Shown here one piece after another: positions 21,620 to 60,396 of a stretch of DNA of 64,000 bases. Origin of the DNA: a candidate division FCPU426 bacterium (GTDB lineage: Bacteria > Oederibacteriota > Muellerivitia > Muellerivitales > Muellerivitaceae); NCBI GenBank assembly GCA_963771075.1, contig CAVYSE010000011.1:141508-205507 (forward strand), given 5' to 3'. Made by a program: the position numbers and the translations under genes. The notes under the pieces were generated by a model. It worked only from the letters and a program-made list of their open reading frames with translations. It ran no database searches and was not told the DNA's origin. How positions within the stretch are numbered: the stretch's first letter is position 1; each line of letters begins with the position of its first letter.

Positions 21620-21637
21620 TTATGACTTAAGTCATGA
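21620..21637. promoter_or_regulatory. Palindromic motif site TTATGAC-ttaa-GTCATGA (~85 nt upstream of the RIC/ytfE-like gene)
   Basis: The core ATGACTTAAGTCAT is a perfect palindrome. Confidence 0.5.
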
Positions 21638-22460: not shown

Positions 22461-22500
22461 TTCATCCGAAGCGACAACTCAAGAAAGGCTGCTTTTTCAA

Positions 22501-23280: not shown

Positions 23281-23379
23281 TCCAAAACCAGCGAAAGCTG
23301 AGTACCGATGTATGCCGGCGTGAATCGACGGGCCATGAACGGTCCTTGGATTCATGAACAATGTTGATTGGGAGCGACG

Positions 23380-24855: not shown

Positions 24856-24873
24856 TTATGACAGGGGTCATGT
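24856..24873. promoter_or_regulatory. Palindromic motif site TTATGAC-aggg-GTCATGT (upstream of the phosphoribosyltransferase gene)
   Basis: Matches the recurring 7-4-7 palindrome. Intergenic between the NMO gene and the PRTase gene. Confidence 0.5.
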
Positions 24874-25002
24874 GGCGCCCCGGTACCGGGGACCATAATC
24901 AAATCCAACTTCGCCGATTGGTTTTTGTAAGTTGAAGTTTTGCCCCGCGTCGAAACAATTTGGGGGGAACCTTTTAAGTCGCGTGTTGGGGATCAAACGA
25001 AC

Positions 25003-25704: not shown

Positions 25705-25754
25705 ACTCCTTGTGCCTATTTGGAAGCGCGCCCCTATAATGAGCCTTTCTTAAA

Positions 25755-35461: not shown

Positions 35462-36172
35462 TCAACCCTTGACGAGGTGGGCCAAAGTAAAGGCTGCAAG
35501 GGCGGCCAAAAGACCCGTCAGGGTCACCGTGAAGGCACCCCGTAATGGCGGTTGGCTTGTCAAACGGGCTTTCCAATAACCGAAAAGTAGCAGACAAACC
35601 ACGGTAAGGAGGAAGGAATAGGCGAGCCCCTGGAGGGGGGTCGAGGTAAAAAGATAGGCTGAGAGAGGAACCAATCCGCCCACCGCATAGGAAAGTCCGA
35701 TCCTCAAGGCGCTGGCATAGGCCTGTTTTGGGTCGGGTTTTTCCAGCCCCAATTCGAAGCGCATCATGAAGTCTACCCAAAGGTCCGGATTCTTGGAAAG
35801 GTCCAAGGCCACCTGATCCTGGGTTTCGCGGGTGATGCCGTAGTGACCCAGCAACTGCCTAATTTCCTCTTTTTCTTCCTGAGGAATTTCCCGGATTTCC
35901 ATCTCCTCCCGCTTTAATTCCCCCTCGTAATGCTCGATTTCGGTTTTACCCGCTAAAAACCCTCCCAGTCCCATGGAAATGGTTCCGGCGATGATTTCCA
36001 CGACGCCCGCTAAAAGGATAAGGGAATTATAAGTGGCAAAACCAGATAAGCCCGCGGCCAGGGCGAATGGTACGGTCAAGCCGTCTGACAATCCAACGAC
36101 CAGGTCTCGGAGAGCCTGGCTGGAACCGGAGTGTGTTTCATGATGGCCGTGATGGGGAATGGGTGTGGGCAT
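35462..36172 (-). CDS. VIT1/CCC1-family iron/manganese transporter
   Basis: Conserved DGLTVPFALAAGLSG and the EIEHY.GELKREEMEIRE.P..E..E cytoplasmic metal-binding helix, plus C-terminal TM helices. ATG 36172 (MPTPIPHH...) is preferred over the upstream TTG. Confidence 0.75.
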   Translation of the reverse strand: MPTPIPHHGHHETHSGSSQALRDLVVGLSDGLTVPFALAAGLSGFATYNSLILLAGVVEIIAGTISMGLGGFLAGKTEIEHYEGELKREEMEIREIPQEEKEEIRQLLGHYGITRETQDQVALDLSKNPDLWVDFMMRFELGLEKPDPKQAYASALRIGLSYAVGGLVPLSAYLFTSTPLQGLAYSFLLTVVCLLLFGYWKARLTSQPPLRGAFTVTLTGLLAALAAFTLAHLVKG

Positions 36173-36289
36173 ATGGTTTATTTCGCTGGGTGGGAGTCTA
36201 ATGGGTCGTGCAAAGAGGAGCAAGTCAGGGGATTATTTTTTAGGCTTTTTCCGCCCTTGGCGCTAAACTTTCATGGAAATAGGCGTAAA

Positions 36290-36307
36290 TTATGACAAGT
36301 GTCATAA
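36290..36307. promoter_or_regulatory. Palindromic motif site TTATGAC-aagt-GTCATAA (perfect) with an extra half-site TTGTCATAA at 36316-36324
   Basis: Lies in the divergent region between VIT1 (minus) and the histidine kinase (plus). Confidence 0.55.
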
Positions 36308-36393
36308 CGCGAGAATTGTCATAAGCGTTATACAACTTCAAAGCATTCGACAGATATTAAAACACAATCTAAAAACGGGGAGAACGATTCTTA

Positions 36394-37740
36394 ATGAATA
36401 ATGATTTTTCCGCCCAACGCTTACAGTGGTTCATTCATCTTCGATGGGCGGCGGTTTTCGGGGGAGGGCTGATCGTGGGAGTCGGGACTCGTGTGGGTCC
36501 CCTCCATTTTTCCCTTCTGACTCTGCTGGGCTCTCTCGCTTTTCTGGGTTTGTTGAACGCCGGATATCAATTTCTTTGGAGCCAATGGTGCAAAGATAAC
36601 GCCAACCCGGAAAATCTGGAAAACCGAATCCGCAAGTTATTTCACATTCAAATGGTATTGGATTTCGCCGTTTTGACCTTCATGCTGGCGGTCAGTGGTG
36701 GGATTCAAAATCCTTTTTTTTTATTTTACCTTTTCCATTTGGCCATCAGCACGATCCTTTTTACCGTTTGGGAAAGCTTGGGATACGCGGTCGTAGCGGC
36801 CTTACTGCCCTGGCTCATCTTTTTGATGCAATCTCAATTACCCCAAATGAATTTGGAAGGAAATTCGGGTTTCGGGCTTTCCAGCGGAGGGGAACTTTGG
36901 CCGGTTCTGACCGGGTATACGGTCACCGTCGCTGGCTTGTGGTTTTTCCTCACCCGGCTTGCTTCCGATCTTAGATCGAAGCAGAGATCTTTGGAAGAAA
37001 TGGGCCAAAAGCTGTCCACGGCCAATGAAAATCTCAAAGAAGTGGACGTTTACAAGAATCAATTCCTTCGGCAAGTGGTTTTTCAATTGAAAGGCCCGGC
37101 AATCGATATGGATTTTGATCTTTCCGCGATCGAGCAATCCATGCCGAAGGCGACCGAAAAAACTGAAACGGCGATTAAAACGGCAAAAAAAAGAGTTTGG
37201 TCTTTGCTGGAACTCATTGATGATTTGGTTTGGTTATCGAAAACAAACGTGGAAGAAATGCCGTTCAAGAAAGAAAAAGTGGATGTTTATGAAGTGCTTT
37301 TGAAAAGGGTGCAACATCATGAGGCGGAAGCCCGACAAAAGGGTTTGGAACTCCAACTACATGGAGACCCTCAAATTCACCTAGAAGCGGATCGGGAGGC
37401 TCTGGACCGTGTGGTAGAAAATCTTTTATCCAATTCTCTGAAATATAGCGAGGAAGGGAAAAGCCCTATTTTGGTTGAGTTCAAACGGAATGGAGAATGG
37501 ATGGTCCTGACCGTGGAGGATAAGGGGATCGGGATCCCGGCCAAACAGCAAAAACGCCTGTTCGAGCAATTTTTCCGGGCTACCAACGCTAAAAGCCGGG
37601 AAAAATTTGGCACTGGACTGGGATTGTCCATCGTTCGGGAAATCATTCAATGGCATGGCGGGAAGGTGTCGGTGGAAAGCGAACCCAAGAAGGGAACCCG
37701 CATTGAGACCTGGTGGCCCCTATTGCCGGATAAAAATTAA
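36394..37740 (+). CDS. Membrane sensor histidine kinase (polytopic N-terminus, HisKA, HATPase_c)
   Basis: About 6 TM helices. H-box region LSKTNVEEMP...; N/G boxes NLLSNSLKYS, GTGLGLSIVREI. Confidence 0.8.
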   Translation: MNNDFSAQRLQWFIHLRWAAVFGGGLIVGVGTRVGPLHFSLLTLLGSLAFLGLLNAGYQFLWSQWCKDNANPENLENRIRKLFHIQMVLDFAVLTFMLAVSGGIQNPFFLFYLFHLAISTILFTVWESLGYAVVAALLPWLIFLMQSQLPQMNLEGNSGFGLSSGGELWPVLTGYTVTVAGLWFFLTRLASDLRSKQRSLEEMGQKLSTANENLKEVDVYKNQFLRQVVFQLKGPAIDMDFDLSAIEQSMPKATEKTETAIKTAKKRVWSLLELIDDLVWLSKTNVEEMPFKKEKVDVYEVLLKRVQHHEAEARQKGLELQLHGDPQIHLEADREALDRVVENLLSNSLKYSEEGKSPILVEFKRNGEWMVLTVEDKGIGIPAKQQKRLFEQFFRATNAKSREKFGTGLGLSIVREIIQWHGGKVSVESEPKKGTRIETWWPLLPDKN

Positions 37741-37761: not shown

Positions 37762-38244
37762 CTAATGTTCGATGGCCTTAACTTCGATAGGTTGGGAAAG
37801 ATGGGCGGTTAAATATCGGGTGGAAATCAAGCCCAATTTTGTCCCGTTCGCACCGAAGGCGAAAAGCTGGCAACGTCCCCCCTTCGCCGGGCTGAATTCC
37901 ACGGTGGCATTGGCCTTGGCAGTCGGAGTCTCACGGGTCGCGAACTGTCCCAACTTCATGTTTTCCAAAATCAACCGGAACCCTTGAAGGTCCTTGAGTG
38001 GATATATTTCCAGATCTTGTTGGGCAAGAAATTGCCGAGCTTCAAGGCAAAAGTTCCTCGAGAAGAGCCAAAGACTGTCCCATTCAGTGACTTTTCCTTC
38101 TTCTTCCAGGGATTGAGAAATGAAGATGTCTTCGATGTCTTCGTGCAAAAGACGCGAGGCCACCGAAAGGATTCCGGTCAATCGTTCCATTCCTTGAAAG
38201 TCTAAACCCATGAATTGCGCATACTCCATAAATGTTTCACGCAT
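37762..38244 (-). CDS. Hypothetical protein (160 aa)
   Basis: RBS GGAAGGAAAG lies upstream of ATG 38244. No confident family; there is a weak resemblance to V4R-type small-molecule binding domains in the C-terminus. Confidence 0.5.
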   Translation of the reverse strand: MRETFMEYAQFMGLDFQGMERLTGILSVASRLLHEDIEDIFISQSLEEEGKVTEWDSLWLFSRNFCLEARQFLAQQDLEIYPLKDLQGFRLILENMKLGQFATRETPTAKANATVEFSPAKGGRCQLFAFGANGTKLGLISTRYLTAHLSQPIEVKAIEH

Positions 38245-38305
38245 ATAACTTTCCTTCCGTGTAAGAACATGGTGAAATCATATAAATCGCCGGAGAAAGG
38301 GGAAG

Positions 38306-38323
38306 GTATGACCCTTGTCATAA
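38306..38323. promoter_or_regulatory. Palindromic motif site GTATGAC-cctt-GTCATAA
   Basis: Lies 62 nt upstream of the 37762-38244 gene and about 320 nt upstream of acs. The core TATGAC/GTCATA is perfect. Confidence 0.5.
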
Positions 38324-38645
38324 CCACTCAAGGGATCTTCTCCACCCCCGAGTGGAGGGTTTCCTGGTAATTTTTTATCTTGCTATTTAAAGGAGAAATA
38401 CCTTTTCCACTGGTTTTGTTGAAAAAGCGTTATTCGAAAATTTGAAGAGAATTGATCCGGAATAGAACCGTTGAACAATGAGGGGTTTAAAAGAGTCGAT
38501 AAGGTTGCAGGCCATTTGTCGTGGCAATCATTTTCCTTTGGCGCATCGTTTGTCGAAGAAAATTTGGATGACCAACGTCATAGACAAAGGATTGGGTAGG
38601 CGACAAACTACCACGAATTTATTTTTTTATTTCCAGGGAGGAAAT

Positions 38646-40628
38646 ATGGCACCCGAAAAGCAATCCATCACTTCTTTGCAGAAGGATTCCGCAGTGACAT
38701 TCCCGCCTCCGGCCTCGGTGGCCTCCAAGGCATTTATCGGATCCTTCCAAAAGTACCAGGAAATGTATGACCGCTCCGTGAAGGATTCCCACAAGTTTTG
38801 GCTTGAACAAGCCACGAATGAACTGGTTTGGTTCAAGAAACCCACGAAAACACTGGAGTGGACTTGGGACACCTCCAAAAGGAAAATTCAGCATTCCTGG
38901 TTTTCGGATGGCGAGTTGAATTTATCGGTGAACTGTTTGGACCGTCACCTAGCCAAGAACGGAAATAAGATCGCTATCCTTTGGCAGGGCGAAAAGGATG
39001 AGGAAGTCCGTAAAATCACCTATTCTCAATTGCATGAGATGGTTTGTCGGTTCGCCAACGTGCTGCTTGCTAAGGGGGTCAAGAAAGGGGATCGGATCTG
39101 TGTTTATATGCCGATGATCCCCGAGGCGGCGGTGGCCTTGCTCGCTTGCGCCCGAATCGGTGCCATCCACTCCTTCGTTTTCGGCGGTTTTAGCGCGGAG
39201 GCGTTGAAAACCCGCATTCAGGATTCCCAAAATGTGTTGGCCATCACCACGGACGTGAGCTACCGATCTGGAAAAGCAATCGGATTGAAGAATATTCTTG
39301 ATGAGGCCCTCAAGGAATGCCCTACCATCAAGAACGTCATTGTCTACAAGAGGGGTGACGGAAAGGTCAACATGCAGGCCGGCCGGGACAGCTGGTGGGA
39401 TGAGGAGACCCAAAAGGCCAGTCCCAAGCATGAGGCCCAGCCGATGAACGCGGAAGACCCGCTTTTTATCCTGTATACCTCTGGATCCACTGGAAAACCG
39501 AAAGGGGTCCTTCACACGACCGGCGGTTATATCTTACACGCCGCCCTGAGCCACCGCCTCATTTTCGACTGCCATCCCGAGGACACCTATTGGTGCACTG
39601 CCGACATCGGTTGGGTCACGGGCCACAGTTACATCGTCTATGGCCCCCTGGCCAACGGCGTCACATCGATCATGTTTGAGGGAGTACCCACCTACCCAGA
39701 TTCTGGTAGGTTCTGGCAAGTGATCGCCAAACATAAAGTCACCATCTTTTATACCGCGCCCACCGCGATCCGTTCCCTGATGCGAGAAGGGGAAGAATGG
39801 CCGAAAAAGCACGACTTGAGCTCCTTGCGCATCCTGGGCTCGGTCGGTGAACCAATCAATCCCGAGGCATGGTTGTGGTATCACAGGAACATTGGCCAAA
39901 GCCGCTGTCCTATCGTCGATACCTGGTGGCAGACGGAAACGGGTGGTATTTTGATCACCCCACTTCCGGGTGCCCATACTTTAAAACCTGGGAGCGCCTC
40001 TCTTCCCTTTTTCGGGGTGGAGCCCATCGTAGTGGATAATGACGGGAAAGAATGCGCCAGAAACGAAGGCGGAAAACTGTGCATTAAGAAGCCCTGGCCG
40101 GGCATGGCCCGCACCATGTGGGGGGATCACGAACGTTTCATCGACACCTATTTCACCGCTTTCCCCAACCTTTATTACACAGGGGACGGTTGCCGCGTCG
40201 ATCAGGACGGAGATTACTGGCTCATGGGCCGGGTGGATGATGTGGTGAACATCTCTGGACACCGTATCGGGACGGCGGAAGTGGAAAGCGCGCTTGTTTC
40301 CCATCCCAAGGTTTCGGAAGCGGCGGTGGTGGGCTATCCCCACGACATCAAAGGATCGGCCCTTTACGCTTACGTGACCGTGAAGGAGGGCGTGACGCCG
40401 TCAGATGAGCTGAAGAAAGAACTGGTTCAGCATGTGCGCAAGGAAATCGGTCCCATTGCCCAACCGGACAAGATCCAGTTCGCGGAGGCGATGCCCAAGA
40501 CCCGCAGCGGCAAAATCATGCGCCGGATCTTGAGGAAAATAGCAGAGAATGAAACGGGTAATCTGGGCGATATTTCCACCCTGGCCGACCCGTCCGTCGT
40601 GGAAAGGCTGATCCAAGGAAAGCAATAA
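38646..40628 (+). CDS. acs: Acetyl-CoA synthetase (AMP-forming)
   Basis: The N-terminus ...[16 protein letters not shown]..., AMP-binding motif [11 protein letters not shown] and C-terminal ...[17 protein letters not shown] (acetylatable Lys motif) are present. RBS GGGAGG precedes ATG 38646. Confidence 0.9.
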
Positions 40629-40654
40629 ACACTATTTAGGAAGTTGTCAGAAAA

Positions 40655-40697
40655 TAAAAAAAGCAGGCTGGTTTAAAAACCAGCCTGCTTTTTTTGA
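40655..40697. terminator. Bidirectional rho-independent terminator between acs and the convergent DRTGG gene
   Basis: Perfect 11-bp stem GCAGGCTGGTT-taaaa-AACCAGCCTGC, flanked by an A-run upstream and a T-run downstream. Confidence 0.85.
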
Positions 40698-40704
40698 CTA
40701 AACC

Positions 40705-41739
40705 CTACTTGAACTTGGCCATGTCCAGATGGGACTGCACAAACTGGGTGATCATCGCGACCTTGCCCGGGTCCTGGTGGGTCAAGAGGGGTTCCAAACC
40801 GTCCAGTTGCTTGGCGGTATGGAAAGTATCGGTGGAAACCAATAAAAGCGGTATATTGCGCTGGTTGGCCAAGGAAAGCACATCCGGCGAGGGAAGGATA
40901 TTGTTCGTTAGGATCACTCCGGAGGTGCCTCCCTCCAGGGCGGCCAGGATCATATCGCTCCGGTCCCCGCTGGTAACGACCAATTTTTTATCCTTATTGA
41001 AGAGGGTAAGCCTCCTGGCGCTGTCCACGGACATGGCTCCAATAATGATGTGGCCCACCTCATTGCCCAATCCTCCTTCTCCGGCGAGGGTTTTCGAGAA
41101 AAGCACCTCGGACAGGTAGGCCATAGTGAAATGGTTCAGTTCGGGTTTCAAAGGCAAGATCCCCAGGATGGGAATACCCAACTGGTTGATCTGGGGCAAA
41201 TAGGTCGTTTTGAAATCCTCCAGGTCGTGCACCTTGTTGAGGATGACGCCCTTAAAACGAACGTCCTGGATCGGCAGGCATTTTTTGATGCAGACCAGGT
41301 CGTCCGCGATGGAACCCTCCGAACCGCTCACCACGAGGATCAACTCCCCGCCGAGGGCTTTGGCGACGGAGACGGCGTCCAGGTGCACGGACATTCCGTA
41401 ATTCAAGTGCATGCCGCCTTCCACGAAAAGTAGTTCCTTCCCGGCCCCGGCGTGGGTGGCCACCTCGCGCAGTTTTTCAGTGGTGGTCGCCGCGTCGTAT
41501 TTGTATTTCAACTTGGCGTGCTCGAAGCCGATGGAGATGTCTTCCGGGTTTTCATGAAGGTTCCAGAGGTGGGTCAGCAGGGCGGAATCGTAGTCCCAAA
41601 GGCGTTTTTTGTGATAGATCAACCGGTCGCCGAAGGGTTTCATGTAACCGGACTGTTGTCCTAGCGCGGCGGCAAGGCCGATGATCACTCCCGTTTTGCC
41701 GGAACTTTTGCTGCTTGATCCAATGACGAGTGTTTTCAT
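40705..41739 (-). CDS. Standalone BioD-like (AAA_26) plus DRTGG domain protein, homologous to the N-terminal regulatory domain of long phosphotransacetylases
   Basis: N-terminal P-loop-like MKTLVIGSSSKSSGKTGVIIGLAAAL. C-terminal DRTGG-type segment VVTSGDRSDMILAALEGGTSGVILTN. No PTA catalytic domain. The stop overlaps the start of the downstream ACD gene. Confidence 0.75.
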   Translation of the reverse strand: MKTLVIGSSSKSSGKTGVIIGLAAALGQQSGYMKPFGDRLIYHKKRLWDYDSALLTHLWNLHENPEDISIGFEHAKLKYKYDAATTTEKLREVATHAGAGKELLFVEGGMHLNYGMSVHLDAVSVAKALGGELILVVSGSEGSIADDLVCIKKCLPIQDVRFKGVILNKVHDLEDFKTTYLPQINQLGIPILGILPLKPELNHFTMAYLSEVLFSKTLAGEGGLGNEVGHIIIGAMSVDSARRLTLFNKDKKLVVTSGDRSDMILAALEGGTSGVILTNNILPSPDVLSLANQRNIPLLLVSTDTFHTAKQLDGLEPLLTHQDPGKVAMITQFVQSHLDMAKFK

Positions 41740-44340
41740 TTCTTTTGGGCCCTTTCCGAGAGCAAAACTCTCACATCCAAAGCTTTAACACCTTTTCCCT
41801 GTTCGTAAACAACCAGGGGATTGATCTCAATGTCGGAAATTTTCTCGCATTTCCGAACCAACGAACCGAGTTTGATGATGGCGTCCACGACGCCATCCAT
41901 GTCTTTTTTGTCCTCTCCCCGAACCCCAAGGAGCAGGGGATAGATCTTGGTTTCTTTGATCATGGCCAGGACATCCGATTTGGAGAAGGGAACGGACCGG
42001 AAGGAAACGTCTTTCATTACCTCGACGTAAACCCCGCCCATGCCGCACATCACGATGGGGCCGAAAGAACGGTCCCGCCGGGCACCCACGATGGTTTCCG
42101 TACCTTTTTTCACCATCTCGTTGACTTCAACGCCTTCGATCACCGCGTTGGGATTGTGTTTTCGGCAGTTAAAGAGGATGGCTTCGTAGGCATCCATCAC
42201 CTCTTGCTGGTTTTCCAGGTCCAAGGCGACGCCGCCGACGTCGCTTTTATGAAGGATATCCCGGGAAACCACCTTCATGACCACCGGGTATCCGATTTTT
42301 TCAGCCGATTTAACCGCTTCTTCCAGGGTGCGGGCAATCGAGTTTTTGGGCATGGGAACCCCGCAAAGTTCCATGATCTTCTGTCCCTCGTGGGCCAATA
42401 AAAAAGACCGGCCGTCCGCGGCCGCCTTGTCCAATACGGCATTGACCGCGTCCACCGGGATGTCGTGCTCCACGGGAAAGCCAGGGGGAGACAGGTTATG
42501 CCGGTACTGGGTCATTAAGGCCCCCAAGCAGGAAACGGCCGAATAGGTATCCTCAAAAACGGGCGCATTATCCTGCCGCAGTGAGAGAATGGCCCGCTCG
42601 GTGGGTTCGCCCCCGAAAAGAGAGAACACGATCGGCTTCCCGCCATCGCGGTAACGGACCGTATTCTCGCGGATCATGGTGGCCAGGTTGTCCACGTCAA
42701 AAACCGCCGTCTCACAATAGAGGGCAATGACAGCGTGGATGTTTTCCAGCCTCAAGGCCGCGGCCAAGGCGCCGTCGTAGTCGGAGGACCGGGCCTGACC
42801 CGTCAGGTCGATGGGATTCTTGATGGACCCAAATTCCGGAACTTCCTTGGCGAAGGCTTTTTTCATCAGTTCCACGTCGTCGTAAAGCGGGACCTGGTAT
42901 TTTTCGCAGGCGTCGGTGGCCATGACCCCGATACCGCCTCCGTTTGTGATGATGACCGTATTCTCGCCCCGGGGCGCGGAACTGGACGTGAAACTTTTGC
43001 ACCAGTTAAAGGCATCCTGGAAATTCTCAGCCCTCAAGACCCCGCATTGCTTGACAATGTTATCGAGGATCTCGTCCGAACCGGCCAGGGCGCCGGTGTG
43101 CGAGGCGGCCGCCATGGCGCCCCTTTTGGAACGTCCGGATTTGATCATGATGACGGGCTTCTTCCGGGTCACCCGGTTAATGGTGGAGATCATCCGCTCC
43201 CCGTCCTTGATGCCCTCGGTATAAAGCATGATGACCTTGGTCTGGGGATCGTCCACCAAATATTCCAAAAGATCGGCCTCGGTGATATCCGCCTTGTTGC
43301 CCACGGAAGACATGGTAGAAAGCCCGATGTGGGCCACCGCCGTCTTGCCGATCATGCCGATACCCAGCGCGCCGCTCTGGGTGATGATGGCCACGTGGCC
43401 TTTCTGGATCTGGGGTCCAAAGGTGGCGTTCAGGTCGGCGTTGGCCGAGTAGATACCGAAGATGTTGGGCCCCATGACCCGCATGCCATGATCCAGGGCG
43501 AAGGACACCAGGGCTTTTTCTTCGGCCACGTTGCCCGTCTCGGAAAAACCGGAGGTGATGACGGGCAGGAACTTGACGCCGTTGGCCGCGCATTCCTTGA
43601 CCGAATCCATGACGAACTTGGCCGGGACCGAGATGCAGGCCAGTCGATGGGCTCCTCTATCTCCGCGAAGGCTTTTCGCCATGGTCAGTCCCAAGCACCT
43701 CCCCGCCCTTGGGGTTGATGGGATACACCTTGCCCTTGATAGCCGCCGGAAAAATATTCTCCACGATCTTGTAACCCACCTTGTCGGGGCTGGCGGAAGC
43801 GCCCACCACGGCCACCGAGCGGGGCTCGAATAGGTATTTGATGTCAGGTCGATTAGGTTGTTCAACGGTTCCTCCGCGGAAGGTCATTTTCAGCTCAACC
43901 ACATTCGTGTTCGTGCGCTTCTGCAAGTCAAATCCTTGATTCTCGAAAAGATGCAGCATGGCGGTGTTTTCCTGAAGGACCTCGGCGGTGAACCCGAAGA
44001 GCCCCTGCTTCTTCGCCAACATGGTCAGGTAGGAAAGAAGCTCCGTTCCGACCCCCTTGTTATGATAATCGTCCTTCACGACGAAGGCGACTTCGGCGGA
44101 ATGCTGGTTTTCCTGGATGCCGTATTGCCCCACCCCGATGATCTCCTCCCGCCCCTGGTCCTCCGCGAAAGCCAGGATGACCATTTCCTTGCTATAGTCG
44201 ATCACGACGAATTCCTGAAGCCTTTCGTGGGGCATGTCCTTACGCACCGACATGAATCGTCGGGACATGCTCTGGTCGGACAGGGAATAGAAAAAATCCT
44301 TAAGGCCGGGTTCGTCATTGATCTTGACGGGGCGCATCAA
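41736..44340 (-). pseudogene. Pat-like protein lysine acetyltransferase (N-terminal GNAT fused to an NDP/ADP-forming acyl-CoA synthetase), reading frame broken near 43690
   Basis: ORF 43657-44340 encodes a GNAT domain (...AEVAFVVKDDYHNKGVGTELL...) followed by the start of the CoA-binding domain (RSVAVVGASASPDKVGYKIVENI...KVYPINPKGGEVLG). ORF 41736-43865 carries the remaining CoA-binding, CoA-ligase and ATP-grasp domains; its first ~55 codons are off-frame. The junction lies in a CCCCAAGGGCGGGGAGG tract. Confidence 0.65.
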
Positions 44341-45739
44341 AAGCCGCAGGCCGGATTCGGTCGTCCGGCGGGTCTCCAGGGACTCCGGGTACTCTCCGCG
44401 TTTTCCAGGGAATAAAGGCCTGGTCCTTGTAAATCAAATGGTTCTTCTTCGCTTCCTCCAGCAACCAGGGCCGGAACTTTGGGTGGGCGATAGAAATGAT
44501 GTCCATTGCCCTTTCTCGCAGGTTCTTTCCGTGAAGATAGGCGATCCCATATTCGGTCACCAGGTAATGAATGTCGCCTCGGGTAAGGGAAATACCGGCC
44601 CCTTCATGGAGGAAAGGCACAATCCTGGAAACCTGTTCGTTATCCGCAGTGGATTGCAGGGTCAGGATGGTTTTCCCTCCTGGCGCGAGCACGGCGCCCC
44701 GCATGAAATCCGCCTGGCCCCCGATTCCACTGAAAAACAAGTGGTCCAGGGATTCGGCGGTAGATTGGCCGGTCAAATCGACCGACAGGGCGCTGTTAAT
44801 GGCGGTCATATTGTGATTGCTCGCGATGATCAGTGGATTGTTGGTGTAATCAATGGGCCGGAATTCGACGGAAGGATTGTCATGGATGAATTCGTAGGTT
44901 TCCTGGGTTCCCATGCAAAAGCTGGCGATGGTCTTGCCGGGGTTAAGGTTTTTCCTGGAGTTGTCGATCACGCCTTCCTTCATCAGTGCCACGATTCCGT
45001 CCGAGAGCAGCTCGGTATGCACTCCCAAGTGCTTTTTATGCCTTAAATTAGCCAAGATGGCGTTGGGGATACTGCCGTAACCCACCTGCAGGGTATCTCC
45101 GTCCTGAACGAAACGGGCGATATATTTCCCGATACGGTTGGCGATCTCGTCGGAAACTTTCGGTTCGTACTCCAGCAGCGGCTCGTCGTGGTGGACAATG
45201 AAATCCACGTCATCGGCGTGAAGGAAGGTGTCGCCATGCACACGAGGCATATGGCTGTTCGCCTGGGCGATCACGATACGGGCGTTGGCTACCGCCGCCT
45301 TAGTGATATCGACGCTGACCCCCAGGCTCATGTAGCCATGCTGGTCCGGCATGCTGGTTTGGATCAGAGCCACATCCACTGGTACCAACTTCCGGTTGAA
45401 TAGATCGGGCACTTGGGAAAGAAACAGGGGCGAATAGTCGGCCAGACCCTGGTTGACCGCCTCCCGGGTGTTATCGCCTATGAAAAAAGAATTGTGGCGG
45501 AAGTTTTGCTTGAATTTCTTGTCGGTGTAGGGTGCGAGGCCTAAGGTCCAGACGTGGATGACTTCGGTGTCAAAAAAGGCCTTGGGATGGTCTTCGATAT
45601 ATTTGATCAGGGCCCCGACCAGGTACTGGGGTTCGCCACAGCCGGTGCCGATATAGATCCGGTCGCCGGGATGGATATGACTGAAAACCTCGTATTCAGT
45701 GGCAAATTTGGAAGGATAATTTTTTCTTAACGATTCCAT
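44315..45739 (-). CDS. Acetyl-CoA hydrolase/transferase family protein (Ach1/ScpC/Cat1-like CoA-transferase)
   Basis: N- and C-terminal AcetylCoA_hydro domains are present (GDRIYIGTGCGEP..., ...VTEYGIAYLHGKNLRERA). ATG 45739 is the probable start. The track ORF extends to 45811. Confidence 0.8.
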   Translation of the reverse strand: MESLRKNYPSKFATEYEVFSHIHPGDRIYIGTGCGEPQYLVGALIKYIEDHPKAFFDTEVIHVWTLGLAPYTDKKFKQNFRHNSFFIGDNTREAVNQGLADYSPLFLSQVPDLFNRKLVPVDVALIQTSMPDQHGYMSLGVSVDITKAAVANARIVIAQANSHMPRVHGDTFLHADDVDFIVHHDEPLLEYEPKVSDEIANRIGKYIARFVQDGDTLQVGYGSIPNAILANLRHKKHLGVHTELLSDGIVALMKEGVIDNSRKNLNPGKTIASFCMGTQETYEFIHDNPSVEFRPIDYTNNPLIIASNHNMTAINSALSVDLTGQSTAESLDHLFFSGIGGQADFMRGAVLAPGGKTILTLQSTADNEQVSRIVPFLHEGAGISLTRGDIHYLVTEYGIAYLHGKNLRERAMDIISIAHPKFRPWLLEEAKKNHLIYKDQAFIPWKTRRVPGVPGDPPDDRIRPAAFDAPRQDQ

Positions 45740-45886
45740 TTGGTTTTCATTCCATTCGCAAAACCGGGCGCTTACCGGGCTTTGGAGAACCATCCGCCGG
45801 CCAAGAATCACCGAAGAGAAAGTAGGGCCGGAGACCGCTTAACCCTTTCAAGGACGCGTTGATTATAAGTTAATGACCCTTTCATG

Positions 45887-45904
45887 CTATGACTCAAGTC
45901 ATAT
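45887..45904. promoter_or_regulatory. Palindromic motif site CTATGAC-tcaa-GTCATAT, with an overlapping degenerate copy at 45871-45888
   Basis: Lies in the divergent region between the CoA-transferase/pat operon (minus) and the deacetylase gene (plus). Confidence 0.5.
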
Positions 45905-46090
45905 CATGAAGGGGCGGGGTTAATTTTTTCCCAAAGGACGAAATTATTAACAACACTCATTTCATTATTGGATAATTGTCCGGACAAAAACAATTGAACT
46001 TGGTGAAATTACCTTAACTTGACTTAGCCAAAGGACAAAATTAACATGCATTATTATTTTCATTTTTTTTAGTTTTTTAAAAGGCCAAGA

Positions 46091-47044
46091 GTGAACGGAT
46101 CCAAGCCTTCCCTCGGAATTGTGTATGACGAGCTTTGCCTGAAGCATCTGCAGGATGCTGACCATCCCGAATCCCCTCGCCGGCTTCTCGCTATTCAAAA
46201 CGCTTTGGATCAAGCGGGACTTTTGAAACGAGCCCTGGCGATTCCATGCCGTAGAGCGACCGATGAAGAATTGAACTTGGTCCACCGGGCTGAATACATT
46301 GAAAAAGTCAAATCGATTTGCAGGAACGCCCCGGCCCAATTGGGTCCGGATGTTTTTATTTCCACCCCCGAAAGCCTGGATGCGGCGCTTCTCTCGGCGG
46401 GCGGCGGGTTTGAGGCGGTCGACGCGATCATGAACCAAAAGGTGACCCGGGTGTTCTGCAATACCCGTCCTCCAGGCCACCATGCCTTGCCCAACCAGGC
46501 CATGGGATTTTGTGTTTTCAATAATATCGCGCTCTGCGCCCGGTATGCCCAAACAAGGCATAAACTCAATAAAATCCTCATTGTCGATTGGGATGTGCAT
46601 CACGGGAACGGAACGCAGGATATTTTTTACGAGGATCCGGACGTATTTTATTTCAGCAGCCACCGGTTCCCCTTTTATCCCGGGACAGGGGCCCGTATCG
46701 AGACGGGAGAGTGGCCAGGGAAGGGCTCGACCCTGAATGTTCCATTTCCGCCGGAGTCGGGGGACGAGGAATATCTGGGGAGTTATAAAAGACTGCTATT
46801 GCCTGCGGCCCTTGAATTTAAACCGGACCTGATCCTGATCAGCTGCGGTTTTGACGCCCATGGCCGTGATCCTTTGGGGGGGATGAACCTCACCGAAAAA
46901 GCATACGCCCACTTGACCGATCTGGTGGTTGGAATCGCTAACCAAACTTGCGGAGGAAAGATCGTTTCCTTCCTCGAGGGCGGTTACGATCTGGAAGCCC
47001 TTGGGTTGTGCGCGGTGGAGCATGTTCGCCAGTTGATGGCGTGA
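46091..47044 (+). CDS. Histone deacetylase-family (class II HDAC / AcuC-like) protein deacetylase
   Basis: Motifs RPPGHHA, DWDVHHGNGTQ and the EGGY loop are present. GTG start at 46091. The overlapping minus ORF 45965-46663 is judged spurious. Confidence 0.8.
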   Translation: MNGSKPSLGIVYDELCLKHLQDADHPESPRRLLAIQNALDQAGLLKRALAIPCRRATDEELNLVHRAEYIEKVKSICRNAPAQLGPDVFISTPESLDAALLSAGGGFEAVDAIMNQKVTRVFCNTRPPGHHALPNQAMGFCVFNNIALCARYAQTRHKLNKILIVDWDVHHGNGTQDIFYEDPDVFYFSSHRFPFYPGTGARIETGEWPGKGSTLNVPFPPESGDEEYLGSYKRLLLPAALEFKPDLILISCGFDAHGRDPLGGMNLTEKAYAHLTDLVVGIANQTCGGKIVSFLEGGYDLEALGLCAVEHVRQLMA

Positions 47045-47186
47045 TTCAATTTTTGGTTTTCACTTTGCAGAAATAGAAGCGCCTTTCTCTTTTCCATGAC
47101 TGTCTCCTAAATTTCCATTTTAAATGTTTTTGTCCTCCTGTTTATTTACGCTGTGACTTTGAATGATTTATTGTCACAAATGTTTA

Positions 47187-47204
47187 ACATGACAACTGTC
47201 ATAA
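47187..47204. promoter_or_regulatory. Palindromic motif site ACATGAC-aact-GTCATAA (~120 nt upstream of the beta-barrel gene)
   Basis: Matches the 7-4-7 consensus with one flank mismatch. Confidence 0.5.
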
Positions 47205-47325
47205 TAACTTCACCCCGCTGGTCCTAAAATCGCTTCTCGTTGATTCTTTTCCCACGACAATCAATTGACCTCCCGGATTTTGTCGGTTCGCGAGAGCGAA
47301 AAAAACTTTCAAGGAGAAAGAAAAT

Positions 47326-48558
47326 ATGAAAAGGTTTTTGTTTTTTTCGATTTTGACTTCCCTGTTTCTGGCGGGATGGGGTACTAAGGTTTTCGCCCAA
47401 GCTACCGAAGTTAAGAATCAGGGAACCCCGGCGGTGACTCCTGAGGCGACGATGGCCGTACCCGCCTCTCCGGTTATAACGGTGGGTGGCTTGGTGGATG
47501 CGTACTATACCTACAACTTCACCAACTCCAGCAAAAACATGAACGGCCACGGAAACGTTGGATACAGCTATGACAACCTTAACGCCGTAGGTTTGAACAA
47601 CGTCGACGATGTTTTCTCCCTGGGCGTGGCGGAATTGATCGTGAAGATGAAGCAGGGCGACGTCAGCGGGATCGTGGCGATATGGACACAGATGGAAGCG
47701 GGCAACTCCGTTATGAACATCTTGGTGGCCAACGCGACCTACTCCCCCGGGCAATTCGCCTTCATGGCCGGCCGTTTCGGTGATTTTATGGGGAACGAGG
47801 CGTTCGATACCAACATGAACTGGAACTACAGCCATTCGCTCATGTACAACGATACCCTGCCCTTGTGGCTTCAGGGTGTTAGCGCCGCCTATATGCCTTC
47901 CGATTCCTTCAAGGTCACGGCTTACGCGACGGAAGGATGGATCAACGACCCGGGTAATATGAACGATTATGGGAAAACCTACGGGTTGGCGATTAACATC
48001 AAACCCGATGAGGTTTGGGGCGTGAAGTTGAACGGAATTGCCGGGCCGAACGAAGGGTATTACTCGAGCGTCACGAATCCGGGGGACTCCCTTTACGTGG
48101 GCGAACTCATCCTCAAGTGCACGGCGACCCAAGACTTTTCATGGGCCCTGGATGCCGAGTATGGCGGGTTGGACCCTGTGGCCGAGGATCATTTGGCCAG
48201 CTTGAGCAGTGAGACCTTCTGGGGCGCGGCCCTTTACGGCAGATACAACATCGCGGCGGACTGGAACATTGGACTTCGTCTGGAAGAATTGGAATCGAGC
48301 AATAGCTGGCTTTATAACGGCATGATTCCTTCGGTCACACCTTATGTGGAAACCCGAGAAGCCACTTTGACGCTATCCAACCAAGTCACGAAAAACCTGT
48401 TGCTCCGCCTGGAAGGCCGTTACGACATGGCCTTGACCGGCGGAACGATGGATGCGGCCGAGACCACCTCTCCCACGGGCGGGGTTTACGTTGGGCCTTA
48501 CGCGGGCGGGTCCGGCGATCAATTGACGACCACCGCCAGCGCGGTGTTGAGCTTCTAA
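47326..48558 (+). CDS. Outer-membrane beta-barrel protein (putative porin)
   Basis: Signal peptide, then alternating amphipathic beta-strands rich in Y/N/G and a C-terminal ...AVLSF ending in an aromatic residue, which is an OMP signature. Confidence 0.6.
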   Translation: MKRFLFFSILTSLFLAGWGTKVFAQATEVKNQGTPAVTPEATMAVPASPVITVGGLVDAYYTYNFTNSSKNMNGHGNVGYSYDNLNAVGLNNVDDVFSLGVAELIVKMKQGDVSGIVAIWTQMEAGNSVMNILVANATYSPGQFAFMAGRFGDFMGNEAFDTNMNWNYSHSLMYNDTLPLWLQGVSAAYMPSDSFKVTAYATEGWINDPGNMNDYGKTYGLAINIKPDEVWGVKLNGIAGPNEGYYSSVTNPGDSLYVGELILKCTATQDFSWALDAEYGGLDPVAEDHLASLSSETFWGAALYGRYNIAADWNIGLRLEELESSNSWLYNGMIPSVTPYVETREATLTLSNQVTKNLLLRLEGRYDMALTGGTMDAAETTSPTGGVYVGPYAGGSGDQLTTTASAVLSF

Positions 48559-48582
48559 TCGAGCCTTAAGGGAACATTTTTC

Positions 48583-48650
48583 CAAAGGCTGAAACCTCTA
48601 TTTGACGCCGTGTTTTAATTTCTCTGAGGTTTCAGCCTTTTATTTTTTGA
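48583..48650 (+). terminator. Candidate terminator after the beta-barrel gene (13-bp stem AGGCTGAAACCTC...GAGGTTTCAGCCT with a long loop, then a T-run)
   Basis: Perfect 13-bp inverted repeat followed by TTTTATTTTTTG. Confidence 0.45.
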
Positions 48651-48702
48651 CGGTTGATCGGATGGGCTTGTGCGTATTCATCTAATAAAGGAGGCAGGAA
48701 CA

Positions 48703-49302
48703 ATGACGACTCAAAGTGAACCCATGAAGCTTGCGGACACTACTGCTAATCCGGCACCCTTGGGCTTGTTGGGCTTCGGGATGACGACCGTGTTGTTAAA
48801 CTTCCACAACGCGGGGTTTTATGCTCTGGATTCGATGGTCTTGGCTATGGGCATTTTTTACGGCGGCTTAGCCCAGGTGATCGCAGGGGTCCAAGAATGG
48901 AAAAAGAACAACACCTTCGGCGCCACGGCCTTTACTTCCTACGGGATGTTCTGGCTGACCTTGGTGGCTCTGCTGACCCTGCCCAAGCTGACGTTCCTGG
49001 GTTGGGCTGGCCCGGATGCCAACTCCTTCTCGGTTTACCTGGCTCTCTGGGGTATCTTTACATTGGTTATGTTCGTGGGAACTTTAAAACTCAACCGCGC
49101 TCTACAGGTTGTTTTCGGATCGCTCGTTATTCTTTTCTTCATGCTTTCCGCCGGCAAGGCAATGGGAAGCGAGGATATCATCCACATCGCCGGGTATGAG
49201 GGTATATTCTGCGGGGCATCGGCGATCTATACCGGGCTGGCCCAGGTCCTCAACGAGGTTTACGGAAAAGTGGTTTGGCCGCTGGGACCCGTGAAGAAAT
49301 AG
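48703..49302 (+). CDS. satP: Succinate-acetate/proton symporter (GPR1/FUN34/YaaH family, SatP)
   Basis: Hallmark N-terminal NPAPLGLLGFGMTT and a 6-TM profile. RBS AAGGAGG lies 8 nt before ATG 48703. Confidence 0.85.
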   Translation: MTTQSEPMKLADTTANPAPLGLLGFGMTTVLLNFHNAGFYALDSMVLAMGIFYGGLAQVIAGVQEWKKNNTFGATAFTSYGMFWLTLVALLTLPKLTFLGWAGPDANSFSVYLALWGIFTLVMFVGTLKLNRALQVVFGSLVILFFMLSAGKAMGSEDIIHIAGYEGIFCGASAIYTGLAQVLNEVYGKVVWPLGPVKK

Positions 49303-49361
49303 TCGGACAAAGTTAAACGGCTATTAGGACTCATTTTAAATTATTTTAGTTTTATGTTTAT

Positions 49362-49392
49362 GAAACCCGCCCCAATGGGCGGGTTTTTTGTT
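49362..49392 (+). terminator. Rho-independent terminator after satP
   Basis: CCCGCCC-caat-GGGCGGG stem followed by TTTTTTG. Confidence 0.75.
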
Positions 49393-49597
49393 AATTACCA
49401 TGAAAAGATTATAGAAATAAGCCAAATTTCTTCTTTTTACTCTTTGGAAATCCTCTTTATTTTCATGACTGAAATCATAGAAATAACGGGCTCGATTTTT
49501 GTCGTAATCCATTATGTTTCTTCGGCCCTATACCTTGCCCTTTAGTTGGCATGTCGTTACAATTTATAAAAGGAGTTGAAAAGGGGAGGAATGCGCA

Positions 49598-50296
49598 ATG
49601 CTTCATTCACAAACATCGCCCGGCAAACAACCTAACATGGTTGGCCGCTCCTTTATTTCCTCCCTGGAAGTTTTCAAAAAGATCCCATCTTCCCACCTGC
49701 TTGAACTCGAAAAGAAAATGGTTGAGCGCAAGTATGCCAAGGGTGAATCCCTTTTCCTCGAAGGCGACCCGGCAGAATACGTCTGGTTTGTCAAGGAAGG
49801 CCATGTCAAGGCCGTTATCCATACCGCCAATGGGCGGGATTTGACCCTCTGTATGGTGGGGGCGAATAGTCTTTTCGGGACCTGCTGCTGTTTCGGAGGG
49901 GGAGAATATCCCTGTCACAGCGTGGCGGAAACTGAAACCACAGTCGTGGCCCTTCCCATGCAGGAGTTCATCAATCTTTTGGATAAATACCCGGAAGTTG
50001 GTAAGTCCATCGTTTTCCACCTTTCCAAACGCTTACGCCAGGCCAAAGATATGCAGACCTTTGACCAGGAAAGCGTGGAAAAACGGATTCTTCACCTTCT
50101 CGTGAACCTTGTGGCTGAATTCGGCAACACCATCCCCTTGACCCGGCGTGAGATCGCGGAAATGACTGGAACAACGGTGGAAACTTGTATCCGAACCTTT
50201 TCCAATCTTGAAAAGGAAGGGTTGGTTTCCAGCGCTAGGGGAAAGATTACAGTAAAAAGCGTACAAGATTTGATCGATCGGCAGGAGGAACTTTAA
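49598..50296 (+). CDS. CRP/FNR-family transcriptional regulator with a Cys cluster in the sensor domain
   Basis: cNMP-binding-like beta-roll (KGESLFLEGDPAEYVWFVKEGHVK), then the HTH REIAEMTGTTVETCIRTFSNLEKEGLV, whose recognition helix is FNR-like (E..R conserved). Unusual TCCCFGGGEYPC cysteine cluster. Confidence 0.8.
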   Translation: MLHSQTSPGKQPNMVGRSFISSLEVFKKIPSSHLLELEKKMVERKYAKGESLFLEGDPAEYVWFVKEGHVKAVIHTANGRDLTLCMVGANSLFGTCCCFGGGEYPCHSVAETETTVVALPMQEFINLLDKYPEVGKSIVFHLSKRLRQAKDMQTFDQESVEKRILHLLVNLVAEFGNTIPLTRREIAEMTGTTVETCIRTFSNLEKEGLVSSARGKITVKSVQDLIDRQEEL

Positions 50297-59043: not shown

Positions 59044-60396
59044 TTAAACCTGGTCTTTCTTCAAACCGTAACGTTTCAACTGGTTAAAGAGGGTTTTACG
59101 GGTAATGCCCAGTAAATCGGCGGCCTTGGATTTATTCCCCTTGGTCATGGTCAGGGCCCGTTGAATATTCAAAATATCCGATTCCTTCTGTTTCAACACG
59201 GGTTTATCCAAGGAGGGGAAGGGTTTTACCTCCCGAACTTCTTTCGGCAAGTCTCTCAGGGTCAAGCCGCCTCCCTTGGCCATTACCACCATGCGTTCAA
59301 TCAGGTGTTTGAGTTCACGAACGTTTCCGGGCCAGGAATAGGCTTGCAGGGCCGAAAGGATATCCTTGTTTAGGAGGCTTAGGTTTTTATTGAAGGCCCG
59401 GCAGGCCTCCTGGTGGAAAAATTGAGCCAATTGGGCGATATCTTCCGACCGGTTGCGCAGCGGGGGGATTTCCAAGGGAACCACATTCAAGCGATAAAAC
59501 AAATCGGCCCGGAACCGGCCTTCTTTGACCTCGTTCTCCAGGTTGCGGTGGGTCGCGGTAATGATGCGGACGTCAAAGGGGATTTCTTTCACGCCGCCTA
59601 GCCTGCGGGAGGTCTTTTGCTCCAATACCTTCAGTAATTTGGTCTGAACCGCCTGGGTGAGCTCACCAATTTCATCCAGGAAAAGACTGCCCCCGTTGGC
59701 GATCTCGAACAAACCCTGTTTCTGCCTGCGGGCATCGGTGAAAGCACCCTGCTCATAACCGAAAAGCTCGGATTCCAGAATCGTTTCCGGCAAGGCTCCG
59801 CAATGGATTTCCACAAAGGGCCTGGAGGCGCGGGAAGAAAAGGAATGGACCAACCGGGCCACATGCTCCTTTCCCGTTCCCGTCTCCCCCAGGATCAAAA
59901 CCGTAATTTGGTCCTGCTGGGCGACCTGCGTTATGGAGGTATAAAGTTTTTGCATTTCCGGGTTGGAGAGGAAAAGGTAATCCTTGCGGTACATTTCCAA
60001 CTGGTTTTTCTTGAGTCCCTCGATTTGGGTGATCAGGCCCCGCTTCTCGGCGATGTGTTTCGTGATGAGTTTGAGTTTTTGGTGATCGATGGGTTTCTCG
60101 AGATAATCCTCCGCGCCAAGCTTCATGGCCTGAACGGCCGAGTCCACCGTACCCCCTCCGGTGATGATGACGACGGAGCAAGCGCTATAGGCCTGGTTCA
60201 GCTTTTCCAACACTTCCATGCCGTTGACGTCGGGCAGGTGAATGTCCAAAAGAAGCATGTCAGGCTGGATGATCTTATGCTTTTCGATCCCCTCGGACGC
60301 GGTATAGGCGGGATAAACCTCGTGGCCTTCTTGGGTCAATATTTTGGAAAGGATTTTGACGAGGGATTCTTCATCGTCCAAGATCAGAATTTTCAA
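59044..60396 (-). CDS. NtrC-family sigma-54-dependent response regulator (REC, AAA+ sigma-54 activation domain, Fis-type HTH)
   Basis: REC (ILILDDEES...LLLDIHLPDVNG), Walker A GETGTGKE, GAFTDA motif, ESELFGYEQGAFT and C-terminal HTH. Confidence 0.85.
   Translation of the reverse strand: MKILILDDEESLVKILSKILTQEGHEVYPAYTASEGIEKHKIIQPDMLLLDIHLPDVNGMEVLEKLNQAYSACSVVIITGGGTVDSAVQAMKLGAEDYLEKPIDHQKLKLITKHIAEKRGLITQIEGLKKNQLEMYRKDYLFLSNPEMQKLYTSITQVAQQDQITVLILGETGTGKEHVARLVHSFSSRASRPFVEIHCGALPETILESELFGYEQGAFTDARRQKQGLFEIANGGSLFLDEIGELTQAVQTKLLKVLEQKTSRRLGGVKEIPFDVRIITATHRNLENEVKEGRFRADLFYRLNVVPLEIPPLRNRSEDIAQLAQFFHQEACRAFNKNLSLLNKDILSALQAYSWPGNVRELKHLIERMVVMAKGGGLTLRDLPKEVREVKPFPSLDKPVLKQKESDILNIQRALTMTKGNKSKAADLLGITRKTLFNQLKRYGLKKDQV

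Follow-up and report, generated by a model that had tools for sequence, protein, structure and literature searches.

The 64,000-nucleotide stretch of DNA analysed here (hereafter the window; positions 141,508 to 205,507 of contig CAVYSE010000011.1, from a candidate division FCPU426 bacterium) carries between about 38,300 and 49,400 a cluster of acetate and acyl-CoA genes, which a first-pass annotation had read as an island for the reversible lysine acetylation of acetyl-CoA synthetase. Gene content was taken from a listing of open reading frames (ORFs) together with Pfam and NCBIfam scans of the window proteins, and every gene named in that annotation is present where it had been placed. Three genes on the minus strand concern us most. 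The first (43853..45739) encodes a CoA-transferase–GNAT fusion, 627 residues long in intact relatives, with AcetylCoA_hydro, AcetylCoA_hyd_C and Acetyltransf_1 domains; the second (41736..43865) an ADP-forming acyl-CoA synthetase (ACD) of fused alpha-beta type, 708 residues when intact, with CoA_binding_2, Succ_CoA_lig, Ligase_CoA_2 and ATP-grasp_5 domains; the third (40705..41739) a 344-residue protein consisting of a BioD-fold P-loop domain (AAA_26) and a DRTGG domain, which we term PtaN-like for its likeness to the N-terminal region of Pta.

The arrangement of the first two genes departs from what had been described, namely a protein with an N-terminal GNAT and a C-terminal NDP-forming synthetase beside a separate acetyl-CoA hydrolase/transferase. 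Frame analysis and comparison with other contigs show that description to be an artefact of frameshifts in the window. The hydrolase/transferase ORF (44315-45811, minus strand, by Pfam) and the synthetase ORF (41736-43865, minus strand) are both there, but the GNAT sits in an ORF of its own (43657-44340), in a frame differing from those of both neighbours, and the 709-residue synthetase ORF of the window has no GNAT domain by Pfam. On its upstream side the GNAT frame prolongs the C-terminus of the CoA-transferase in a three-frame translation (…IYKDQAFIP followed by GKRGEYPESL…). A 1-nt insertion at ~44411 separates the two, leaving the CoA-transferase domain at ~44412-45739 and the Pat-type GNAT domain broken off from it at ~43853-44410, both on the minus strand. 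At the other end a 2-nt insertion at 43858-43859 abolishes the GNAT stop codon (CCC TAA becomes CAA CCT AAT), and the apparent read-through from GNAT into synthetase is due to this insertion; the GNAT ORF also covers CoA_binding_2 up to profile position 44. Looking up the exact PtaN-like protein gave five contigs, among them L001, L002 and L003. The gene calls in L001 and L002 give a 627-residue CoA-transferase–GNAT fusion, a separate 708-residue synthetase and the 344-residue PtaN-like protein, and the two contigs are near-identical to the window apart from a patch at 43179-43861, the insertion at ~44411 and scattered single-base differences, of which L002 has a few extra. Our conclusion from reading frames and gene calls is that the true architecture is a CoA-transferase–GNAT fusion plus a standalone synthetase.

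Residues 1-440 of the fusion match 4-hydroxybutyrate CoA-transferases in the PDB (E ~1e-122). Its HTEL motif aligns with HSEM of 3gk7, Glu243 falls at the position of the AbfT catalytic E238, and all 82 sequences keep both this catalytic glutamate and the GIGGQ motif, as in family I CoA-transferases; the substrate equivalog TIGR03948 is not reached (270.8, with the cutoff at 674.8). The GNAT domains matched by residues 446-618 are those of E. coli PatZ (9it0/9isq), S. lividans PatA (4nxy/4u5y) and mycobacterial Pat, MtPat included, with the N-terminal extension of the GNAT covered by the alignment to PatZ residues 706-878. Glu549 aligns with PatZ E809 and slPatA E123, described as the key catalytic residue (PMC12184503), and is Glu in 80 and Asp in two of the 82 sequences, while the G-x-G loop that binds the acetyl-CoA phosphate is kept in 78-80 of them, placing the domain in the Pat subfamily of GNATs. 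With Pat/PatZ (YfiQ) and PatA, bacterial lysine acetyltransferases of types I/II that target Acs Lys609, the fusion has in common the GNAT subfamily, the catalytic glutamate and the acetyl-CoA-binding loop, and more broadly the joining of a GNAT to a large acetyl-CoA-binding domain and a gene link to acetyl-CoA synthetases. It differs from them in what the GNAT is joined to, here a CoA-transferase with intact catalytic residues (AcetylCoA_hydro/AcetylCoA_hyd_C) instead of an ACD-like regulatory domain, which the GNAT polypeptide lacks; the ACD is a separate gene downstream. In PatZ it is the fused acetyl-CoA-binding domain that controls the GNAT (PMC12184503).

The closest PDB matches of the ACD are Nitrosopumilus 8wzu (E 4e-142) and ACD1 of Ca. 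Korarchaeum (4xyl), and it shares with ACD1 and the Nitrosopumilus 4-hydroxybutyrate-CoA ligase (8wzu) the five-subdomain fused alpha-beta order and both phosphohistidine motifs. The latter are present as SHTGAL and ILHKSD in the window protein, and are kept in 39/39 and 38/39 cassette ACDs. Given that both motifs survive in the window and in its orthologues, this protein is an enzyme and not the catalytically dead sensor domain of a Pat-type protein. It differs from characterised ACDs in falling below every NCBIfam equivalog cutoff, those for acetate specificity included (TIGR02717, 401.9 against 567; NF045493, 504 against 1300), and in being paired with a PtaN-like protein, a pairing not described for them.

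The PtaN-like protein is, as the annotation had it, a standalone AAA_26 plus DRTGG protein: Pfam finds no PTA_PTB domain in its 344 residues, and its NF004167 score of 102.8 lies well below the cutoff of 418. It is homologous to, and aligns colinearly with, the N-terminal regulatory region of class II Pta (residues 103-370 of the E. coli protein). The Walker A GKT and other BioD motifs (KP, VEGG) are invariant in its homologues, where E. coli Pta has GLT in place of GKT, and the predicted structure shows a BioD + DRTGG fold and nothing further on mechanism. A standalone AAA+DRTGG protein of unknown function, DVU3031, is encoded in the D. vulgaris luo operon (PMC4481167); it likewise lacks PTA_PTB and likewise lies beside enzymes that convert acetyl-CoA to acetate with a gain of ATP, whereas the partner of the PtaN-like protein is ACD or Acs and not Pta-AckA. 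Translational coupling of the PtaN-like gene to the synthetase gene, which had also been proposed, is borne out by an ATGA overlap of the ACD stop and the PtaN-like start and by 36/36 co-occurrence elsewhere. The identities of ACD and PtaN-like proteins to their window counterparts rise and fall together (r = 0.89); that of the fusion remains near 70%. In Candidatus Poribacteria a 1316-residue protein, P0250 (L171/L172, 6001-9951), identical in two independent assemblies, has ACD and PtaN-like parts fused in frame: the N-half of the CoA-transferase is followed by ACD from CoA_binding_2 profile position 54 onwards and then by AAA_26 + DRTGG, and the GNAT is lost. Its make-up suggests that it derives from the cassette by an in-frame deletion. 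As it is the sole fused protein among the 120 top matches to a concatenated ACD + PtaN query, it lends the ACD–PtaN link weak Rosetta-stone support. Four Spirochaetota loci (L030, L034, L038 and L044) have two tandem PtaN-like paralogues after the ACD, at ~50-55% identity to the window protein.

The fusion is widespread. Its family is very large, all 8000 scored candidates of the homologue search having passed E 1e-20. At least 551 species genomes (one genome per species) carry it, at 67-82% identity, across bacterial and archaeal phyla. Carriers include Spirochaetota, Bipolaricaulota, Nitrospirota, Thermodesulfobacteriota, Planctomycetota and Actinomycetota, as well as Cyanobacteria, Thermoplasmatota, Theionarchaea and Methanotrichaceae, the nearest being a metagenome-assembled genome (MAG) of candidate division FCPU426. 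The top 120 homologues are 616-681 residues long and have both domains.

Synteny was assessed by tblastn over 80 species-level loci anchored on the fusion, 69 of which could be judged, the arrangement being undecidable in 11. The order fusion, ACD, PtaN-like is found in 36 loci, and the PtaN-like gene is never missing where the sequence permits judging; in four others the contig ends after fusion and ACD, before the PtaN-like gene would be reached, and in another four ACD and PtaN-like genes form a divergent pair. Ten loci have an AMP-forming Acs gene nearby, often with satP, and no ACD, one has satP only, and 14 have none of the partners. In ten such 'orphan' loci the neighbours are unrelated housekeeping or sensory genes and no alternative partner emerged. 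One locus, L008 (9001-14032), has an AMP-forming Acs in the ACD slot between fusion and PtaN-like genes; this record is labelled 'Methanoperedenaceae archaeon GB50', a label that looks doubtful given the sigma-70/ECF factors and bacterial-type ATP synthase genes nearby. A Methanotrichaceae MAG (L078, 4655-10841) has two paralogues of the CoA-transferase–GNAT gene, separated by 2.5 kb; acetoclastic methanogens, the group to which this MAG is assigned, depend on Acs for acetate activation. The FCPU426 relative L006/L010 keeps the 160-residue ORF described below, acs, the cassette and a Crp/Fnr gene. The proposed conservation of the neighbourhood in relatives therefore stands for the fusion, ACD and PtaN-like genes, with or without Acs, and falls for the HDAC, porin and satP genes, whose linkage is sporadic. 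Only the cassette, to which Acs and the regulator may or may not be joined, forms a conserved core of the island.

Convergent with the cassette lies the gene for a 660-residue AMP-forming Acs (38646..40628, plus strand; ACAS_N, AMP-binding and AMP-binding_C domains), which scores 1015 bits against TIGR02188 (cutoff 725) and 1050 bits against NF001208, as a member of AcsA. The acetylatable lysine of its A10 motif, with the core PKTRSGK, can be read directly in the protein, and the near-identical contig L002 likewise calls a 660-residue acs gene. Acs adjoins the fusion in the window, and does so in at least 11 further loci. Between the convergent acs and PtaN-like genes lies a bidirectional terminator (40656..40695), a perfect inverted repeat of 19 bp with A/T runs on either side. 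Divergent from acs is an ORF of unknown function (37762..38244, minus strand; 160 residues), which has no match in Pfam or NCBIfam and has a homologue with 52% identity at the same place beside acs in L006/L010. Rfam and tRNA scans across the whole window gave no match, so no riboswitch accounts for the long acs leader.

Divergent from the fusion gene, and confirmed as an HDAC-type gene, is that for a 317-residue class-II zinc deacetylase (46091..47044, plus strand; Hist_deacetyl, 335 bits). It is HDAC6/HDAH-like, with the active-site motifs of class II zinc HDACs intact (GHHA, DWDVHHGNG, GFDAH, EGGY), which supply the His-His dyad, the Asp/His/Asp zinc ligands and the catalytic Tyr, and its top PDB matches, HDAC6 CD2 (E ~1e-70) and bacterial HDAH, make it class-IIb-like. 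Two further genes on the same strand are also as annotated: a 410-residue outer-membrane beta-barrel porin of the BBP2 (OmpL-like) family (47326..48558; PF07642, 127.7 bits) and the 199-residue SatP/AceTr acetate channel (48703..49302), which exceeds the NF038013 equivalog cutoff of 50 with 274.5 bits and is also called, at 199 residues, in L001. A terminator-like hairpin can be read after the porin gene (48587-48637) and an intrinsic terminator after satP (49362-49387).

The palindrome ATGAC-N4-GTCAT occurs in the window at seven exact and four one-mismatch sites against ~1 expected, a total of 11 that none of 100 shuffles reached, and all seven exact sites are intergenic. Upstream of acs are a distal site, ATGACCCTTGTCAT (38308..38321), and a proximal one, ATGACCAACGTCAT (38568..38581), ~65 nt before the acs ATG; ATGACTCAAGTCAT (45889..45902) lies in the 351-bp divergent region between the fusion and HDAC genes, and ATGACAACTGTCAT (47189..47202) upstream of the porin gene. 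The one-mismatch site ATGACTGAAATCAT (49465..49478) lies upstream of a gene for a 232-residue transcription factor of the Crp/Fnr family (49598..50296, plus strand; cNMP_binding and HTH_Crp_2), which suggests probable autoregulation. The annotation's shared palindromic operator is therefore real, at the acs, fusion/HDAC and porin promoters, but it is not specific to the island. Three exact sites lie elsewhere: at 21622-21635, before the gene for a ScdA/RIC-type di-iron protein, together with DUF2249/TusA and NMO-like genes (21723-24819); at 24858-24871, before a phosphoribosyltransferase/ZIP transporter pair (24940-26519); and at 36292-36305, within a divergent VIT1/histidine-kinase pair (35462-37740). 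From these three the candidate regulon would mix acetate with stress and metal genes. The core TGA-N6-TCA is typical of Crp/Fnr sites, and ATGAC-N4-GTCAT includes it. The overrepresented palindrome also occurs near the crp gene, and its positions are conserved: in the relative L006 (82% identity) acs is preceded by two sites, the fusion by one and crp by one with a single mismatch, with different N4 spacers. In L006/L010 the cassette is immediately followed by a Crp/Fnr orthologue (81% identity). These features make the adjacent Crp/Fnr protein a candidate binder of the palindrome; comparison of the protein with NCBIfam and the PDB yields neither an equivalog nor a clue to its effector. In E. 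coli the acetate switch places acs under CRP/FNR, with uptake by SatP/ActP, and the window resembles it in having two Crp/Fnr-type palindromes before acs and an acetate channel nearby; it differs in the half-site (ATGAC/GTCAT), in a regulator without equivalog and in the operators before RIC/hemerythrin and metal-transport genes.

Elsewhere in the window, a hybrid histidine kinase of 1516 residues (54468-59018, plus strand) has ~8 PAS domains and a receiver domain and adjoins a sigma-54 activator gene (59044-60396, minus strand); counting the other kinases too, the window is unusually dense in sensors. A secreted 556-residue protein without a Pfam match (10087-11757, minus strand) has a long Thr-Pro (TPTxT) repeat linker, which is the cause of a spike in GC skew (0.32) at 10-12 kb.

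Taking these observations together, we propose with middling confidence that the island is an acetate or short-chain-acyl-CoA module under Crp/Fnr-type control, with a fused acetyltransferase, an HDAC eraser and a PtaN-like partner of the synthetase. What holds of the original notion of an acetylation island is the clustering of a Pat-type GNAT, an intact HDAC-like enzyme, an Acs with the target lysine, acetate enzymes and an acetate channel; the writer had been misassigned, and the HDAC link is not conserved. The core is a conserved three-gene operon for a competent family I CoA-transferase (of the 4-hydroxybutyrate/butyryl-CoA:acetate type) bearing a Pat-type GNAT, a true ACD and the coupled P-loop/DRTGG protein. 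In this scheme the synthetase would interconvert acetate and acetyl-CoA using ATP/ADP, the CoA-transferase would move CoA between acetyl-CoA/acetate and another short-chain acid, and the GNAT, carried on an enzyme that binds acetyl-CoA, would acetylate a neighbouring acetyl-CoA synthetase when acetyl-CoA is high, acting as a built-in governor. The likeliest target would be the lysine of PKTRSGK in the AMP-forming Acs, which is the most plausible candidate because GNATs of this subfamily have Acs as their canonical substrate and because Acs recurs as a neighbour whenever the ACD is missing; the fusion, that is, probably acetylates the active-site lysine of Acs. Such acetylation would limit acetate activation or avert a futile cycle between ACD and Acs, and in this organism the divergent HDAC-like enzyme may reverse the mark. 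The HDAC–porin genes and satP, with its own terminator, would then form an opposing arm that takes up acetate and reactivates Acs, and the PtaN-like protein would serve the synthetase as a partner that senses nucleotides or metabolites. Genes for cytochrome oxidase subunit I and glycoside hydrolases, also present in the window, are compatible with a facultative organism, which could alternate between excreting and assimilating acetate.

Several observations count against this proposal. The fusion stands alone among unrelated genes in 14 of the 69 judgeable loci, from which it follows that it does not need its partners in cis, and to our knowledge the ACD is not among the known Pat substrates. 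The HDAC, porin and satP genes are missing from the cassette neighbourhood in the nearest relative, L006/L010 (82% identity), and in nearly all of the other loci. Since the palindrome also precedes RIC/hemerythrin and metal-transport genes and is not particular to the island, co-regulation says little about a dedicated switch. Furthermore, several frameshifts interrupt the core operon in the window, and the operon may be non-functional in this strain.

In another account the genes are metabolically co-located and nothing more: they form a catabolic or anabolic acyl-CoA/acetate module where acetyl-CoA is supplied or drawn off by the CoA-transferase and ATP is saved or spent by the ACD, where the GNAT acts on cassette proteins or a small molecule, and where the HDAC is an unrelated amidohydrolase, of acetylpolyamines or xenobiotic amides, with no Acs circuit at all. 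Among 80 metagenomic loci anchored on HDAC homologues (41-52% identity), none had the fusion, a true Acs or SatP, and an HDAC gene lies near the fusion in only two of the 80 fusion-anchored loci (L037 and L050), such that the eraser link may be coincidental. Moreover, class-II HDAC-like enzymes include small-molecule amidohydrolases, represented among the PDB relatives of the window protein by HDAH, polyamine deacetylase HDAC10, dimethoate hydrolase and propanil hydrolase, and both catalytic domains of the fusion, like the ACD, look enzymatically competent from their residues. Set against this, the GNAT is specifically of Pat type, down to the N-terminal extension that aligns to PatZ 706-878, and the fusion is found repeatedly beside AMP-forming Acs even where there is no ACD (ten loci and L008). 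HDAC homologues, too, recur in telling places: in L155 (225-4154) a classical type-I Pat (ACD-like plus C-terminal GNAT, 922 residues) lies directly upstream of an HDAC homologue (44% identity), and in L050 an Acs–HDAC–acyl-CoA-synthetase operon is divergent from the fusion, in the layout of the window. The L155 genes in themselves pair a writer with an eraser in a metagenomic lineage that is unrelated. The count of 0/80 HDAC-anchored loci led us to reject the HDAC as a conserved part of the system, L155, L037 and L050 being the only exceptions. On balance we regard co-location without an Acs circuit as unlikely, though by no means negligible, and retain the proposal of a regulated module.

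The frameshifts could also be taken at face value, as a genuine pseudogene cluster in which recombination with a diverged allele produced the tract at 43179-43861 and subsequent decay left the island core without function. The patch lies in the 5' third of the ACD gene and is ~10% divergent from two otherwise near-identical assemblies, with ~70 differences from L001/L002, ~9 of them indels; compared with L001 and L003, 78 differences are unique to the window, several indels among them, and they are concentrated in ~700 bp. The 1-nt insertion at ~44411, moreover, is not in a homopolymer. Taken by itself the patch resembles either a strain-mixed consensus or a recombination tract within the ACD gene. 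However, the flanks are virtually identical to L001/L002 across >10 kb, the substitutions in the patch mostly resemble synonymous allelic variation, several of its indels are changes of homopolymer length (T5/T6, G2/G3) of the kind expected from long-read consensus errors, and another assembly, L003, breaks up the same genes differently. We therefore consider a pseudogene cluster improbable; most likely the frameshifts arose as local errors in the consensus of an assembly that mixes strains.

As for the PtaN-like protein, its role might be that of an adaptor in protein acetylation, functionally like AcuB, an inhibitor of AcuC that responds to Ap4A, and not that of a regulator of the synthetase. 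Its intact Walker A motif and its position after an AMP-forming Acs in L008 would suit such a role. The protein is nevertheless almost always present without an HDAC nearby, and it overlaps the ACD, varies together with it and in one case is fused to it; in Pta, furthermore, the homologous N-terminal region regulates the catalytic domain to which it is fused (Campos-Bermudez 2010, as cited in PMC4481167). An adaptor is improbable, and a partner of the synthetase remains our reading of it. Least credible of all, and rejected on the frame analysis and the comparison with L001, L002 and L003, is the first-pass version itself, a type-II Pat-like writer with an N-terminal GNAT, a C-terminal synthetase-like regulatory domain and a separate CoA-transferase: the insertion at 43858-43859 does leave the GNAT frame open into the first ~55 synthetase codons, but further frameshifts end that frame at 43657, removal of the 1-nt insertion joins the GNAT to the CoA-transferase, in two independent assemblies and in every fusion homologue listed or judgeable the ACD is separate from the CoA-transferase–GNAT, the top 120 homologues of either protein include no GNAT–ACD or triple fusion, and the ACD retains both catalytic histidines.

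The textbook example of lysine acetylation controlling bacterial metabolism is the reversible modification of acetyl-CoA synthetase. A clustered parallel is the acsA–acuABC system of B. subtilis, in which writer, adaptor, eraser and target genes lie together (PMC13039410). The window is similar in clustering a writer, an HDAC-type eraser and the Acs target, in divergent transcription and in a small accessory protein of nucleotide-sensing type. It differs in each of the parts: the writer is a multidomain Pat-type fusion where AcuA has a single domain, the eraser is class-IIb-like and not AcuC-type, with a linkage that is not conserved, and the accessory is BioD-fold + DRTGG where AcuB is CBS + ACT, and tracks with the ACD and not with the deacetylase. 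A literature search on the fusion, on COG0857 and on DRTGG with ACD or Acs found no description of the cassette, returning only the remark on DVU3031 and the AcuB paper. All the parts come from known families; it is the fusion architecture, the obligatory pairing of ACD and PtaN-like proteins and the interchange of ACD with Acs that appear to be undescribed.

The current classification of GNAT acetyltransferases recognises types I-V by regulatory domain, with no CoA-transferase type among them (PMC12184503). Tentatively, and in our view possibly though on the doubtful side, the fusion may represent a sixth architecture, in which an active CoA-transferase replaces the ACD-like sensor of Pat and which forms, with interchangeable ACD or Acs and with PtaN, a horizontally mobile, self-regulating acetyl-CoA/acetate module present in many phyla of bacteria and archaea. 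As part of the same suggestion, PtaN would be a portable regulatory subunit, sensing nucleotides or metabolites, that serves three enzymes, being fused in Pta, operonic with ACD and operonic with Acs. GNAT and ACD genes lying side by side could also have supplied the raw material for type II Pat, through loss of a stop codon, an event that the 2-nt insertion in the window mimics exactly.

If this is true, the CoA-transferase-fused Pat-type GNAT would add a new type of writer, encoded as a rule beside an acetyl-CoA synthetase, and tie the control of acetylation directly to CoA-thioester exchange. ACD has a central part in the fermentative formation of ATP by archaea, syntrophs and many uncultured anaerobes, and its pairing with the PtaN-like protein points to a regulatory subunit of ACD that has gone unrecognised. 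The same pairing offers a testable function for standalone AAA+DRTGG proteins such as DVU3031, and since carriers of the fusion include the cultured cyanobacteria Microseira wollei NIES-4236 and Lyngbya sp. CCY1209, the experiments are feasible.

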